Position numbers and translations under genes: made by a program. This document shows, piece by piece, positions 50 to 7,446 of a stretch of DNA of 36,939 nt (position 1 is the stretch's first letter; every line of letters begins with the position of its first letter). The notes under the pieces were generated by a model. That model was not told where the DNA came from, made no database searches, and worked only from the letters and a program-made list of their open reading frames with translations. Source of the stretch: a virus. The stretch lies in UHGV virus genome UHGV-0114473; one strand, 5' to 3'.

Positions 50-2320
50 TTAATCTTCAGTCACATTATCCATAACTTTGAGGCACGCAACTAGACGATT
101 ATTGTTTCGTCTTTGCAATGCAGCCTCAAGGACTAAAGCCTCTTCATAACGGATACCATAACGTGAGCCTGCAGGAGTGACCAGAATATCTTCATATTCT
201 GGATCTGCCTCTTCTTCATACTCTTCTTCGACTTCTTGAAACTCTGTCTCGATGTACTCCTCTTCTACATCTTCAACTACAGGGACGCTCACGAATGGAT
301 TTTGCGCAAAAGGTGAACCATCTTCATTAAGAACAGGTATCATTTCCATTTTTGGAGTCTGATACTCTTCATTCACTACTCGTTTAATCCGTGTTCCGTC
401 TTCCAGTACCTCATCCTTTAATACCTGACGACTCTCAGTAACCATCACTGGTTTGCTTACAATTCGAGTTTTAGTAACCTGCACTGGAACTGTTGTTATG
501 CGAGTTTTAGTAACCATTACACCTTCGTTTGTCTGAACCTTAGTATATTGATCATCCCACTCGTCAAAGCAAAAGAATCCAAATCGGTGCACATCAAGCC
601 CATGACGTTCAAACGCCTCCTTTGCACGTTGAGCTATTACGCCAAAATGCCAACGAGCTCCGTCTTCTCCTTTTTCTTCTGTTCTGTCAAGATACTGAAA
701 TTGAACGAAGTCAACCTCTGACCATGCGTCAAGTATTGTGTCAGTGATTTCAAGAGGTGCAGTTTTAGCTCGCTCATCTGAAGTAACGGTAAAGGCTGTT
801 TGAGTGAATCCACCAGACCACACACGACCAGCAGTTCCGACCGTGCTATTACTGTTCTGTGAGTATGGTGTAATAGATGAGTCTACTCTCACAACCCCAT
901 CCCCCTTTGGAGATAGCCTCAAATCAATATCTGTGTCGCTTCCAGCAACGCCAACAGCAGGAGCATTAGATGCTGTCTGTGAGCGCATGGCTAGATAATT
1001 GGCAGGAACTGTAGGCCCAGACTCTATGGAAAATATAGGTAACCCAGACGATAATCGTGTAAATACTACGCCATTATCACTAAATAACATTCTGGTTGAT
1101 CTGGTTGCATCCTCCAAAACAGAGAGTATTTCAGAAGTTTTCTGATTTGAATTATTGTACCAAGTCATTGAGTGTCTATTACCAAAAGCAATTGCCACAC
1201 CTTGACCTGTTGATTCTCCGTCGGTTCCTTTAAGGCTATTGCTGCCAAATACGATGCCCTTCAGAAAGCGTGCTGTTTTCCCAGCAGTTTTGTCGTTAGC
1301 TATTATTCCAATTGCTGCCGATGCAGCATTCAACACTTCTCCAGCTTGGGTTAATTCACCACCTGAGCCTAACCATAATGCGTCAGTCTGACCGTTGGGG
1401 AACATTGAATTAGGATACAGTTCACGCTCATTCCCCCTGTTTGCTATATCAAGTTCAAGACCGTGACTTGCTCCGATTGTTCCTGCATTTCTTACAGTTG
1501 AACCATAAAGTGCCCATGCGCTAGACCTAACACCTGATGAATCATCGTTGTAAGCCATCCCGGCTACGGCAAGAGCAGCATTACCCGGTTCACCATCTCC
1601 AGTATGAGCAGATCCAAAAATTCCTATCCCATCTGGTGGGGCAATCCCAACATTTCTACAGTGTCGCTCTAAATAGAAATAAATATTTCCCCCTAGCCCT
1701 GCCATCCATGGCACTTGCCTTAACCAATACCCACCAATGAATGTAACATCCATTTCCATTTCCCACGATGTAAGTGGGTCTGAAACAATATCCTGACTTA
1801 ACAAATAAGTGCCAGCAGGAATATAAATTTTGCGCCTTGTCGCATTAGCCGCAAGAAAAGCTTCAGTAGAATCAACAACTCCTGTCGGGTCAGCACCTCC
1901 TGCAAAACCACTCCAAGTAACAGGCTTTGCTAATCCTCCGACAAATCCAGCTCCACCAGGACCCTCCAGTTCAGATCGCAGTTGATCAGGGTCATACTTC
2001 AGCACATTAGGAAAATAGAACTGCTGCGCACCATATGCATCATAAACAGCCATAGAATGACCTTGCACGGTAACGAATTTGGCAATCTGTCCGTTATATA
2101 CCGGATAACCAGCAGCGTTAATGATGATTGGTTGAGAAACAGGAACGTGAGAACCGTCTTCGTTCTCTACATAAACCTGAATCCGGTTTTCAGGATTTAC
2201 CGGGTCAGTGTCAATTTTACCGATATAAATTTTGCCATTGGCTACGGCTTTAAAAGAACGAGCCATAGTGAATAGTTGCGAAGGCATACTCACTACAACA
2301 TTAGCTGTAATGTCTGTCAT
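50..2320 (-). CDS. Tailspike/tail fibre: P22 gp9-like N-terminal head-binding domain, divergent receptor-binding domain, C-terminal intramolecular-chaperone-like region
   Basis: N-terminus [59 protein letters not shown] matches the P22 tailspike head-binding domain from memory. C-terminal region (…[27 protein letters not shown]…) resembles self-cleaving fibre chaperone domains, followed by TKTRIxxxPVxV repeats and an acidic tail. Confidence 0.85.
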
Positions 2321-3385: not shown

Positions 3386-3607
3386 TCACTGTTTTTGTAA
3401 GTCACTGTAGCTATAAAGCCACTGACCACTCATTTTTGATTTGATTGACTCTACTGAATCACGGCAAGGAATGATTCCACCTGACATCATTCTGATCTCC
3501 GTAAATTCACCACTCCTTATCGACTCAATGCCATTAACGTTAACTAAAGATTTACCTCTACCAAGTGCATTCTCATAGCCAATCTCATCAACCTCGATAA
3601 ACTTCAT
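3386..3607 (-). CDS. Hypothetical 73-aa protein between arc and ant
   Basis: ORF whose ATG overlaps the arc stop (ATGA), suggesting translational coupling. No recognisable motif; P22 has no gene at this spot. Confidence 0.4.
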
Positions 3608-3756
3608 ACCGTTATCCCCTCTCTCTTCAGGCTGTCCAGCAATCGCTTAATCACTTCCGAGTTAAACGACCGGCATTCTTCTTTGGCCTTTCCTGTAATC
3701 GCATCTTTTAGCGACTGAGGCATTCTCACCAAAATTCTGCTAACTTCTTTTTCCAT
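3604..3756 (-). CDS. arc: Arc-like ribbon-helix-helix repressor
   Basis: [50 protein letters not shown], 50 aa. RHH pattern (…R.P…NGRS.NSE… equivalent) like P22 Arc. The second in-frame ATG is chosen because the predicted -10 overlaps the first. Confidence 0.75.
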   Translation of the reverse strand: MEKEVSRILVRMPQSLKDAITGKAKEECRSFNSEVIKRLLDSLKREGITV

Positions 3757-3865
3757 ATCGCCACCACGTGAGTTATTGTGAATCACAAACATATCACCGT
3801 GACTATATCAAGTCAAAATTTTTTTGAATACACTGTGATATCAATGTGATTATCACGGTGTAAGT
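3757..3865. promoter_or_regulatory. Divergent Pant/Pmnt control region with operator palindromes
   Basis: TTGACT -35 for the arc/ant promoter (rc of 3811..3816). Inverted repeats CACCGTGA (3795..3802) / TCACGGTG (3853..3860), GTGATA…TATCAC (3835..3856) and the palindrome TGATATCA. Confidence 0.5.
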
Positions 3866-4120
3866 ATGACGAAGGTTAGAGACATAGCCCCATATAGCGT
3901 AAGAATGCCAGATAGCCTCAAGCGCGACCTGACCATAAGAGCATCGAAAAACGGACGCTCATTAAATTCAGAAATAGTTATGATCTTGCAAGCTGCTATT
4001 GATGAAGAAAAATCACCAAGATCAATAGAAGGTTTTGCTCAACAAGAATCTGAAAAATTTAGGGAGGCTCTTCTTAAGACTCTCAGCAGCATGTACGGAG
4101 AAGATAAAAAACCCACCTGA
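3866..4120 (+). CDS. mnt: Mnt-like ribbon-helix-helix repressor
   Basis: MTKVRDIAPYSVRMPDSLKRDLTIRASKNGRSLNSEIVMILQAAIDEE…; RHH N-terminal motif and size (84 aa) match P22 Mnt (82 aa). Divergent from arc/ant. Confidence 0.8.
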   Translation: MTKVRDIAPYSVRMPDSLKRDLTIRASKNGRSLNSEIVMILQAAIDEEKSPRSIEGFAQQESEKFREALLKTLSSMYGEDKKPT

Positions 4121-4134
4121 CGGTGGGTTTTATT
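4106..4134. terminator. Bidirectional rho-independent terminator between mnt and the accessory cassette
   Basis: AAAAAA-CCCACC-TGAC-GGTGGG-TTTTATT: a GC stem flanked by an A-run and a T-run, so it can terminate both convergent transcripts. Confidence 0.6.
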
Positions 4135-4552
4135 AGTGCTTGTATAGGTTGAACTCTCTATCAAGCCATATAACAAAAAATGTCGATCCAAGACGATAAC
4201 CAACCATGGCTTTCAAATCATCAAATCTAAAAGCCAAGAAATGATCTACGTCTTCCGTTATATGACTGGGGATACCTGCTTTAATTGCACCCCTTGCAAT
4301 CTTCTCAAATCCAAGCTTATGCCTACCTTGCTGCTTAATATCTGCCCATGTTAGTTGACTTAATCTGTATAATTTATCAGCTAAGCCAGCTTTCTCATCT
4401 TTTTGGCATTTCGTTATGCAGTGAGAGCTTTGGATGTAACAGAATGAAAATTTCGGTTTCTTTTGATCTGAATTCCCCCCTGACTGCGGCCCTAACTTTA
4501 ACTTACCTGTAGATTCAGCAGGGGGGATAATCCTTTTAGATTTTCTTGCCAT
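4133..4552 (-). CDS. Hypothetical 139-aa protein, partner of the Panacea-domain gene (candidate toxin/effector)
   Basis: Start MARKSKRIIPPAESTG… lies 4 nt after the upstream gene's stop. Basic, low-complexity N-terminus; C-terminus …DHFLAFRFDDLKAMVGYRLGSTFFVIWLDREFNLYKH. No family recognised. Confidence 0.5.
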   Translation of the reverse strand: MARKSKRIIPPAESTGKLKLGPQSGGNSDQKKPKFSFCYIQSSHCITKCQKDEKAGLADKLYRLSQLTWADIKQQGRHKLGFEKIARGAIKAGIPSHITEDVDHFLAFRFDDLKAMVGYRLGSTFFVIWLDREFNLYKH

Positions 4553-4556
4553 CTCG

Positions 4557-5006
4557 TTAGTTAATCCGAGTTGCAAAGTACTCTGCCATCTCCTTAGAAC
4601 TAATTTCAGAACCACCAACACCCTCAATATAGTTTGATCTCCATGGTGACTCTTCGTGTGTCATGTTCCTCAGTTTCCAGGCAGAAAATTGCCCAAAAAC
4701 ATCCCAGACTTCTTCTAATAGCTCTAACTGTTCTTCGCTGAATTTTTCAGCATCAAAAGACTCTGGAGAAGGGATAGCACCATTACCATATTGTTTATAA
4801 CGGTGATAAAGCTCAGGGACAACAGGGCCATGCATCCAAGCTTCCATCTTATTCTGAAAAAGAGGCTCGCCAAGCAACGCCAATGAAAAACCCTGAGCAT
4901 AGTAAACAAGCTTTTGTAATTTTAAATTAGAGATTGCGTCACCGCTATCCTCGTCACACCGCGACAGGAAGTAGTCGGCGACATCAAAACAAGTAAGCAT
5001 GAACAC
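4557..5006 (-). CDS. Panacea/DUF4065 (SocA/GepA-like) domain protein, putative antitoxin
   Basis: Motifs LKLQKLVYYAQGFSLALLGEPLF…EAWMHGPVVPELYHRY…THEESPW typical of PF13274 (recalled, not searched). GGAGG Shine-Dalgarno 8 nt upstream of the ATG. Confidence 0.7.
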   Translation of the reverse strand: MFMLTCFDVADYFLSRCDEDSGDAISNLKLQKLVYYAQGFSLALLGEPLFQNKMEAWMHGPVVPELYHRYKQYGNGAIPSPESFDAEKFSEEQLELLEEVWDVFGQFSAWKLRNMTHEESPWRSNYIEGVGGSEISSKEMAEYFATRIN

Positions 5007-5374
5007 ACCTCCATCTTGATAGCCACAGCTAAGTATCCAACTATGTCAAATGTCATTTAATACTATAACAAAGCTATCAGCAATCCTTCGGAGGCTAACT
5101 TACAACCACTTTAGCGACATGTTTAAACCATTACGTTTCACATTTACTGCATTTTCGCCGAAGTTACCTATAAGGTAATGTCACATTTCCTGCAAGTTTC
5201 ATGCAATGTTGAAAAGTGAGCTATTCACTTTTCTATGACACCAAACACCAAAAATAGCACTTTTTGCTAAATCATTCGTCCAAGTTGTGGATGGTTTGTC
5301 GTTGACACGTTTTCACACACCACTCCACCAATAAAGTATCATCTGGTATCCTGAGCAAAACTAAGGAGGTTGGT

Positions 5375-5563
5375 GTGAAGAAAAAATTTGTAAACGTTGC
5401 AAAGTGCGCAATTTTTATATTTTTTATGACCTTTTACGGATTTAGTGCCGGAGAAGGTTTCGATCGTGATGCCAATGCATTCAGTTTCTTTTGTCTGTCT
5501 ATAGTGGTCATAATTGTATGGGTGGAATTAAAGCAAACATTGTTTCATGTGCTAGGGAAATAA
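5375..5563 (+). CDS. Small hydrophobic (2-TM-like) 62-aa protein
   Basis: GTG start preceded by a strong AAGGAGG Shine-Dalgarno at 5-nt spacing. Two hydrophobic segments (AIFIFFMTFYGF, FFCLSIVVIIVWV). Convergent with the ejection-protein gene. Confidence 0.4.
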   Translation: MKKKFVNVAKCAIFIFFMTFYGFSAGEGFDRDANAFSFFCLSIVVIIVWVELKQTLFHVLGK

Positions 5564-5580
5564 CCATCCATGGCATTTAG

Positions 5581-7446
5581 TCACTGCTGTGTTGCCTCAG
5601 TGGCAAGCAGCGGTCTGATGGCATTTGCAGCGTTACTTAATGCTCTTTCATAGGCTGGCGTTCCTGCTTTGGTGTTTGCCAGACGTAAGAGCGCATTCCT
5701 GGCCATAGGGCTTTCATAAACCCTCGACATAAGGCCAATCCCTGTTTCCCCAGCCAATAGCGCGCCTCCGGTTTTTAGGTTACCAATAACCCTTACCAAA
5801 GGCGAGAGTGTCATGCCAGTCTTCGTCACAACATTAGCCTCAGATGCTCTTTTGGTAGCATCGAGAATAGATAACATCCCCTCTATCTCTTTTCCGTTCT
5901 TCCCACCAAATACAGTTTTAAACACCTGACCATTTGCTTGTTTTTGCAGCTTGCCAAGCTCGGTCATCATTTTCTGAGGGCTGTCACCTACCTTGTCAGC
6001 TATTTTGCTGATATATGCCGCCCTTAGCATGTCTTTACCTTTTTGATCGAGTTTCCCGTACAATCGAGCTATATCTGACCCATATTGTCCATACACAATG
6101 GTATTTACAGCCTCGGGAGTTAAATCTCCTTTGTTTAGAACGTTTTTAAGGCGCGTTTGAGTTGCATGTGTTGCCATTTTTGCATAATCAGCTTTTCCCG
6201 CTCTCCATGCTGAAGCATCTTTTGGGCTAAGTCCTTTCGCTATAGATTTACTAAGGCTATTGGTTAGCGAGTTATAGACCCTGTCGACCATTGTTTGCGA
6301 CATTGATGGCAGAACTGTACGATCGCCTTTTACGTCAATGCGGAACTGAGTTCTCAGCTTATCAAGTAACTCAAAGGCATCATCTCCATTTGTTATCTCC
6401 TGAATGGCATTCTTATAATCATTAAGCGCAGAAATGGTCTGGGTGTCAGAAACACCTTTAAGTTTCCCAAGTTCGTTTACTGCTCCGTCGATAGCTCTTA
6501 TGGCGCCACTTGTATCAACTGGCTTTCCAACCATTCTTCCTGACAGGCTGTTTAGTTTTGACTTGGCTAACGATTTTTCCCTTGCAACGCCTGACTTTAG
6601 ACTATCAACGACTACAGATGGATCGTAGTCGCCGTATTTTTCGGTGAAGCGATTAACAAGCTTGGTTCTGGCATCCTGCTGTGCGGCTCTCATTGGTCCA
6701 GTACCAGCTATGACTCCTTCTGAGTAACCCTGCAGTTGATTGCCAAGTTTTGTTTTTGGAGGAACTACATCCGATGTCATAACTGGTACATCTGCCGCAG
6801 CGGCACGCTTGAGCAATTGCTGATCTGCTGGTGATATTTCGCCACGAACAGCAGTAATTCCACGCCCTATTCCCTTTGCTGCTGCGGAAAGAACCCCCTG
6901 AGCGGCAAGGTTAACTCCGGCATTTTTAGCTGCATTTTGTGCGAAATCGCCTTTCTGATTTGCGGCCTCTGCCAGTGATCCAATAGCCATGCTTCCTGCC
7001 GTTCCAACTCCTGGAACTAAATACCCGCCAATTGTTTCTCCAGCTTGCGCATAAGGGTCTGTTGGTCGATCTACTGGACGATAGACATCGTCCAAAACCT
7101 TGGGGCCACCAAGCCCCTGGCTGATTGCATTAATCAGACTTGCGCCACCCTGCAATACGTCAAATGGTATGTTTACCAGACCGCGACCAGCCTGCTCTGC
7201 AATTTGCCCTGCACTTTGACCACCAGTGAGCCAATCGCCAGCTTGTTGCATCAATGATGGTTCTTCTTTCTGCTGCTGAGGCGGAGGGTATGCTGCATAA
7301 AACTGATCTCTTGCTTCAGCCCATTTGTCACCAGCCTTAGGGGCAACAACCTCATCAAAATATTGCGCTTGAGCCTGTGCTTTCTGTTCTTCAGTTAACG
7401 CCTGATACTGTGGAGAGGCGATAACATCTTTCCATGCTTTAGCCAT
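5581..7446 (-). CDS. Ejection (DNA-transfer) protein, P22 gp16-like
   Basis: 621 aa at the gp16 position, last of the gp7/gp20/gp16 trio. Ala/Gly-rich with coiled-coil-like composition. Confidence 0.75.
   Translation of the reverse strand: MAKAWKDVIASPQYQALTEEQKAQAQAQYFDEVVAPKAGDKWAEARDQFYAAYPPPQQQKEEPSLMQQAGDWLTGGQSAGQIAEQAGRGLVNIPFDVLQGGASLINAISQGLGGPKVLDDVYRPVDRPTDPYAQAGETIGGYLVPGVGTAGSMAIGSLAEAANQKGDFAQNAAKNAGVNLAAQGVLSAAAKGIGRGITAVRGEISPADQQLLKRAAAADVPVMTSDVVPPKTKLGNQLQGYSEGVIAGTGPMRAAQQDARTKLVNRFTEKYGDYDPSVVVDSLKSGVAREKSLAKSKLNSLSGRMVGKPVDTSGAIRAIDGAVNELGKLKGVSDTQTISALNDYKNAIQEITNGDDAFELLDKLRTQFRIDVKGDRTVLPSMSQTMVDRVYNSLTNSLSKSIAKGLSPKDASAWRAGKADYAKMATHATQTRLKNVLNKGDLTPEAVNTIVYGQYGSDIARLYGKLDQKGKDMLRAAYISKIADKVGDSPQKMMTELGKLQKQANGQVFKTVFGGKNGKEIEGMLSILDATKRASEANVVTKTGMTLSPLVRVIGNLKTGGALLAGETGIGLMSRVYESPMARNALLRLANTKAGTPAYERALSNAANAIRPLLATEATQQ

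Follow-up and report, generated by a model that had tools for sequence, protein, structure and literature searches.

A two-gene Panacea cassette with a putative RNase partner in the gene 16-mnt slot of a P22-like phage genome

The virus genome UHGV-0114473, a stretch of 36,939 nucleotides (nt) that is referred to throughout as the window, belongs to a P22-like phage (Lederbergvirus) and carries a cassette of two open reading frames (ORFs) between the gene 16 position and mnt: a Panacea (DUF4065) gene, panA, followed by a gene for a partner protein of 139 amino acids (aa). We consider it fairly probable that this cassette is a PanAT module of class T1, in which a RelE-type RNase effector is kept in check by PanA, and that it is carried as prophage cargo. 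An earlier note on this DNA, made without database searches, had described the two ORFs, predicted that the first encoded a Panacea protein within a PanAT-like pair, and presented the second as an unrecognised protein that could be a novel toxin. The ORFs, their coordinates, the 4-nt gap and the motifs quoted from them are all present in the sequence, and the Panacea assignment and the PanAT architecture were borne out. The proposed novelty of the partner was not, as it has a predicted RelE/YoeB/YafQ-type fold, belongs to a published cluster (T1) and has an identical counterpart, from phage Emek, in the study of Kurata et al. (2022). Since the window proteins are identical to this catalogued pair, the partner can be called neither novel nor unrecognised; the pair is on record as a predicted PanAT system, with toxicity and a role in defence both putative.

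PanA and its pairing with the partner gene

Both cassette genes are read on the minus strand and are therefore co-directional. Taken from its GTG, the upstream ORF (4557-5006) encodes 149 aa and carries the motifs LKLQKLVYYAQGF, EAWMHGPVVPELYHRY and EESPW, although the start is probably the ATG at 5000, which would give a protein of 147 aa, because a GGAGG lies 7 nt upstream of this codon and both the PGAP annotation and the homologues use it. A search with PF13274 (SocA_Panacea) matched residues 30-122 with 88.4 bits (E 8.1e-25) against a cut-off of 25.7, and by this profile match the product is a Panacea/DUF4065 domain protein. It consists of the Panacea domain only, with no N-terminal or other extra domain, and is 100% identical to YP_006560565.1 of Emek. 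Like SocA of the type VI system SocAB of Caulobacter it carries a Panacea domain, but its score against the NCBIfam model SocA_antitoxin (NF047745; 70.4 bits, E 1.5e-19) is far under the 190-bit equivalog cut-off and its partner is not SocB. The stop codon of panA (TAA, 4557-4559) and the partner ATG (4550-4552) are separated by four bases, a direct reading of the sequence, and with so short a spacer translational coupling of the two genes is likely.

Under the definition of Kurata et al. (2022), PanA and its partner are encoded co-directionally, no more than 100 nt apart and outside any longer conserved operon, and the window pair has a 4-nt gap, a shared strand and flanks that differ between loci. 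The pairing of panA with the partner gene is conserved across phyla. In all seven diverse genomic homologues the partner gene is immediately preceded, in the same orientation, by a Panacea-only gene of 143-147 aa, the contexts being a P2-like prophage of Aeromonas, an Acidobacteria chromosome, a Solidesulfovibrio prophage, the end of a lambda-like prophage in Morganella, a cyanobacterial locus with HsdR next to it, a contig from a metagenome and a locus adjacent to an integrase. Among viral sequences in IMG/VR, PanA is directly upstream in 61 of the 64 loci that encode a relative of the partner. The homologues are often found at prophage accessory positions or beside defence genes such as HsdR, and the genes that flank the pair vary from locus to locus, so that no longer operon is conserved. 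The cognate PanA family has a mean column identity of 60%. Compared with the Morganella cassette, panA has a dN/dS of 0.04, and the partner retains 73% protein identity while synonymous sites are saturated; by these sequence comparisons both genes are under purifying selection.

Fold and conserved residues of the partner

The partner (4133-4552; MARKSKRIIPP...FVIWLDREFNLYKH) belongs to phrog_8366 and to a family of 1503 clusters at 50% identity when matches with E up to 1e-3 are counted, or 181 at E up to 1e-30. Nearly all of the best 150 clusters are stand-alone proteins of approximately 130-146 aa, the few shorter ones probably being truncated. The AlphaFold model, for which 30 aligned sequences were used, had a mean predicted local distance difference test (pLDDT) score of 83.6, with a basic N-terminus (residues 1-30) of low confidence, and showed the characteristic alpha/beta fold of the RelE/ParE (BECR) superfamily. 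The modelled fold is of the RelE/YoeB/YafQ type, and the partner is accordingly described here as a putative endoribonuclease. It is unlike the RelE, YoeB, YafQ and HigB toxins in three respects: there is no detectable sequence-profile similarity to them, it is about 45 residues longer and bears the basic, low-confidence N-terminal extension, and it pairs with Panacea rather than with RelB, YefM, DinJ or HigA. Residue conservation, computed over 260 relatives that are 28-94% identical to the window partner, was highest at E83 and G81, which are invariant, followed by R109, D131 and Y137 (98%), H139 (97%), R120 (91%) and H78 (88%). The active-site residues of YoeB are E46, R65, H83 and Y84 and those of YafQ are H50, H63, D67 and H87, and by analogy the conserved residues of the partner look like an RNase active site.

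A link to a known effector came from the PADLOC model of NsnC, the C-terminal region of which (178-279 of 284) was matched by 30 of 30 family members with a best E of 1.9e-10. This C-terminal domain has been described as a BECR RNase that resembles YafQ and has an H-R-H triad, and as the effector of the Menshen system (Li et al., 2025, NAR, PMC12065111). The likeness to Menshen is confined to the homology with this PB-BECR1 region of NsnC. The partner is a stand-alone protein of 139 aa without the N-terminal inactive-PIN domain, and there are no NsnA (ParB-DUF262) or NsnB (ABC ATPase) neighbours, their place being taken by PanA, Arc/Mnt-like and ejection genes. In NCBIfam, the 'MAG6450 family' was matched below threshold by 28 of the 30 members (best E 2e-6).

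Published toxicity tests and possible modes of action

The Emek pair is listed in Dataset S1 of Kurata et al. (2022, PNAS, PMC8832971) as a predicted PanAT of cluster T1 with a PanA of the 'noNTD' type, gene order A|T and reciprocity 4|5. 'pT1' accounts for 217 entries among 1268 pairs, level with the MqsR-like cluster, and the predicted action of cluster T1 is given as 'mRNase' in Table S1 (PMC8832971). The window cassette shares with this cluster identical proteins, a Panacea-only PanA and the antitoxin-then-toxin order as well as that predicted action, and differs in that the mnt-side flank of Emek is not that of the window. Three T1 proteins are relevant to toxicity. Expressed from pBAD33, the Emek protein YP_006560566.1 and an E. 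coli T1 toxin were both scored 'not toxic', whereas a T1 protein from Clostridium cadaveris was 'toxic' in E. coli; neutralisation by PanA is entered as n/a for the Emek pair in Table S1, and the PanA from C. cadaveris 'failed to neutralise' the toxic protein that it accompanies (PMC8832971). The earlier note had held that an absence of toxicity would tell against a toxin or abortive-infection role, and for the Emek and E. coli proteins that absence is on record, but the proteins cloned were extended forms and the C. cadaveris relative is toxic.

The extension arises from the choice of start codon. YP_006560566.1 is annotated with 161 aa, of which residues 23-161 are 100% identical to the window partner; the 22 added N-terminal residues (LVVLKLVLRRWQSTLQLGLTNE) overlap panA by 62 nt. 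In the family alignment all homologues start where the ATG at 4552 lies, which gives 139 aa, and in public records the same protein is annotated with 139, 147, 160 or 161 aa (window 4133-4627, minus strand). The toxicity construct for the Emek protein is thus the 161-aa form, with an extension that the homologues do not support, and from its listed overlap of -20 we infer that the E. coli construct, WP_077635758.1, was probably the 147-aa form of the same protein. The 22-aa extension sits on a region modelled as disordered and may be harmless to activity. The native 139-aa form apparently lies outside the published toxicity tests, and the form that gave the negative result starts 22 residues upstream of the start that the homologues support. 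A modest addition to what is published is that neither the link between T1 and the NsnC effector domain nor this start-codon problem appears in the texts of Kurata et al. (2022) and Ernits et al. (2023), as far as these were available; the supplements of the latter, in their available parts, contain none of the three accessions (Emek, E. coli and C. cadaveris).

If the cassette is a T1-class PanAT module as we propose, PanA would bind the RNase partner and hold it inactive. A trigger such as phage infection or the loss of PanA would then free or activate the RNase, which would cleave RNA, probably ribosome-bound mRNA, such that translation would stop. For the prophage the outcome could be abortive infection, exclusion or an addiction module. 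Several results weigh against this proposal. Neither the Emek nor the E. coli protein was toxic, PanA of C. cadaveris did not neutralise its partner, and no defence phenotype for the cassette was found in the literature searched. With Pfam, 30 members of the partner family gave noise only, with RelE, YoeB, YafQ, HigB and ParE all unmatched; the family profile had no match among the sequences of all solved structures even at E up to 10; and hhalign of this profile with E. coli YafQ and YoeB produced no meaningful alignment. The likeness of the conserved residues to an active site is itself inferred. There is no sigma-70 match of at least 9/12 upstream of panA on the minus strand, which leaves expression in the lysogen putative, and the three exceptions among the 64 IMG/VR loci (one orphan, L033, and two N-terminally truncated copies, L056 and L059) are partners without PanA.

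One explanation for the published non-toxicity is that the effector may be latent until it is triggered. The partner RNase would then be inactive alone, and PanA, acting as a sensor of phage, would switch it on, possibly with no dissociation of the two; the cassette would serve defence rather than being a toxin-antitoxin pair of the classical kind. We regard this, the main alternative, as possible, if somewhat improbable. It would reconcile the strong conservation of the partner with the failure of two constructs of this protein to show toxicity, it agrees with the sensory role that Ernits et al. (2023) favour for Panacea, the NsnC domain to which the partner is homologous acts as effector in a sensor-transducer-effector system, and L033 tolerates a full-length partner that is an orphan. 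However, the C. cadaveris relative is toxic alone, the constructs tested bore non-native N-terminal extensions, the activation step is wholly hypothetical, and the presence of PanA upstream in 61 of 64 viral loci is equally expected of an antitoxin. The more specific suggestion that the cassette is a prophage abortive-infection or exclusion system, with a latent RelE-fold RNase that shares the NsnC effector domain, is switched by PanA and functionally replaces sieA, is likewise offered only tentatively. Were it true, a latent RNase switched by PanA would explain why the largest class of predicted PanAT pairs did not score as toxic in the classical assay.

Another possibility is that the partner has kept a RelE-like fold but serves a role other than as a toxin, for example in RNA binding, regulation or lytic counter-defence. 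The published non-toxicity, the failure of the C. cadaveris PanA to neutralise its partner and the existence of frameshifted or truncated partner copies would all fit, as would the want of a recognisable promoter of its own together with the gene 16 orientation, which makes late-gene read-through possible. We nevertheless think this unlikely, given that the near-invariant Glu, Arg, Asp, Tyr and His are typical of RelE-type active sites, that the protein is homologous to an effector nuclease domain, that the strict two-gene pairing extends to non-phage chromosomes, and that one T1 member is toxic. It is very improbable that the partner is instead a ParE-like poison that inhibits DNA gyrase and does not cleave RNA; the shared superfamily fold is countered by the C-terminal Tyr-x-His and the Glu and Arg, which resemble those of the RNase members (by comparison with the YoeB and YafQ active sites), and by NsnC-C, the homologue detectable at sequence level, being classed as an RNase. 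For the PanA-controlled RNase module that we propose, the discovery value is small, as an identical pair was catalogued in 2022 and the obvious toxicity experiment has been done. T1 ranks, however, among the top two predicted PanAT classes by size (approximately 217 pairs out of 1268), with an unsettled function, and the homology to the Menshen RNase effector together with the prophage-cargo locations points to a triggered defence role.

The gene slot, its boundaries and neighbouring genes

The genes that flank the cassette (Table 1) match the P22 map, as the earlier note had proposed in placing it in the sieA slot between the last ejection-protein gene and mnt. The counterparts of the gene-16-position protein in Emek and in phage JEP4 are annotated as DNA transfer proteins. 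On the mnt side the cassette is followed by genes for the Mnt/Arc-like repressor, Arc, a 73-aa ORF, Ant and a tailspike with a P22 head-binding domain, the order in P22 being 16(+), sieA(-), orf59a(-), mnt(-), arc, ant and 9, with sieA and orf59a filling the interval. The position is therefore that of sieA but the orientation is opposite, since the cassette is co-directional with gene 16 and the late genes whereas sieA in P22 is opposed to gene 16. SieA is known as a prophage-expressed exclusion cargo of this slot; it is an inner-membrane protein with its own mapped promoter, and the cassette proteins are of other types (Panacea and a RelE-like fold), a distinction made by description and not by pairwise alignment. 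Read-through of the cassette from the late operon is possible. A search of Rfam over 3500-5700 gave no real family, and an alignment of the regions upstream of the window, Morganella and Aeromonas cassettes contained no conserved element.

Table 1. Coordinates of the cassette, its boundaries and its flanking genes in the window
Feature	Position	Strand	Basis
Mnt/Arc-like ribbon-helix-helix repressor, flank on the immI side	3866..4120	+	PF03869 Arc, E 7e-9
Bidirectional intrinsic terminator	4108..4131	common to the cassette (-) and the convergent Mnt/Arc-like gene (+)	hairpin and U-runs, folding energy
Partner gene: 139-aa PanT of cluster T1, putative endoribonuclease with predicted RelE/YoeB/YafQ-type (BECR) fold	4133..4552	-	
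Spacer of 4 nt, panA stop codon to partner ATG	4553..4556	-	read from sequence
panA: Panacea-only putative antitoxin or sensor	4557..5000 (or 5006 with GTG)	-	PF13274
Non-coding stretch upstream of panA, moves with the cassette	5001..5383	-	Megablast homology
Ejection/DNA-transfer protein, gene-16 position	5581..7446	-	directly downstream of gp20 (PF16928) and gp7 (PF25688) homologues

The cassette had been called AT-rich and bounded by a bidirectional terminator, and both statements hold in part. Its content of guanine plus cytosine (GC), at 41.0%, is lower than that of the window (47.1%) and of the virion genes (49.6%), but the difference is moderate only, the adjoining tailspike/immI block being at 43.1%. 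The terminator is a hairpin with a ten-pair GC-cored stem, a 4-nt loop and U-runs on both strands, folding at -16.2 kcal/mol on the plus strand and -15.8 kcal/mol on the minus strand (z -4.8 and -5.6), with none of 200 shuffled sequences equally stable. The partner ORF ends 2 nt from it, and it limits the cassette at the 3' end only. By Megablast the cassette forms a module of about 1.28 kb, from 4104 to approximately 5377-5385, that is 99-100% identical to sequences in the phages Emek and phiv205-1 and in many E. coli prophages, in which the flanks of the module are unrelated to those of the window. Of 5426 complete E. coli genomes, 48 (approximately 0.9%) carry the two coding sequences of the cassette, and the cassette was also found in P22-like phages of Salmonella and E. 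coli.

Other P22-like phages, which the earlier note had suggested surveying, carry unrelated cargo in the same slot: a 322-aa P63C-domain protein with a 134-aa ORF in phage vB_EcoP-611R6 (L081:3837-5291) and a C2-like repressor with Rha and KilA in JEP4 (L082:546-3478). It has been reported that sieA itself occurs in only 22 of 66 P22-like phages (PMC10883804). The gene 16-mnt interval is hypervariable in P22-like phages, and the cassette is a discrete, swappable cargo module in this slot of a P22-like genome.

Three neighbouring features of the window were recorded in addition. A hydrophobic ORF of 62 aa (5375-5563, plus strand; MKKKFVNVAKCAIFIFFMTFYGF...) begins at about the point where the homology of the cassette module stops, with a GTG start that is preceded by a strong AAGGAGG Shine-Dalgarno sequence. 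It is convergent on the gene-16-position gene, which is the orientation of sieA in P22. No Pfam family matches it, and comparisons with SieA of P22 and orf129 of Emek gave no similarity. The 73-aa ORF between arc and ant (3386-3607, minus strand), which also has no Pfam family, is present in Emek and vB_EcoP-611R6, where it is annotated as hypothetical (orf73). The tailspike (50-2320, minus strand) has a Peptidase_S74 domain, an intramolecular chaperone of the endosialidase type, in addition to the P22 head-binding domain, and this combination suggests a capsule-specific receptor-binding module and not an O-antigen endorhamnosidase of the P22 type.

Unusual arrangements of the pair were seen at four loci. 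L033 (3688-4423) encodes a full-length partner without a Panacea gene. In the 100-aa ORF upstream of it, an N-terminus from lambda tail assembly protein I (PF06805) is fused to approximately the final 25 residues of PanA (IEGVG...YFLTRIN), which means either that the partner can be tolerated by itself or that the C-terminal tail of PanA is enough for control. The partner copies in L056 (3971-4306) and L059 (3971-4288) match the family profile only from position 37-41 onwards, have no PanA upstream and are probably decaying remnants. At L073 (3465-5386) the panA found just upstream of a partner gene is on the opposite strand, and a second, far more divergent PanA/partner-like pair comes after it in tandem (E 5e-28 for PanA and 3e-5 for the partner-like protein).
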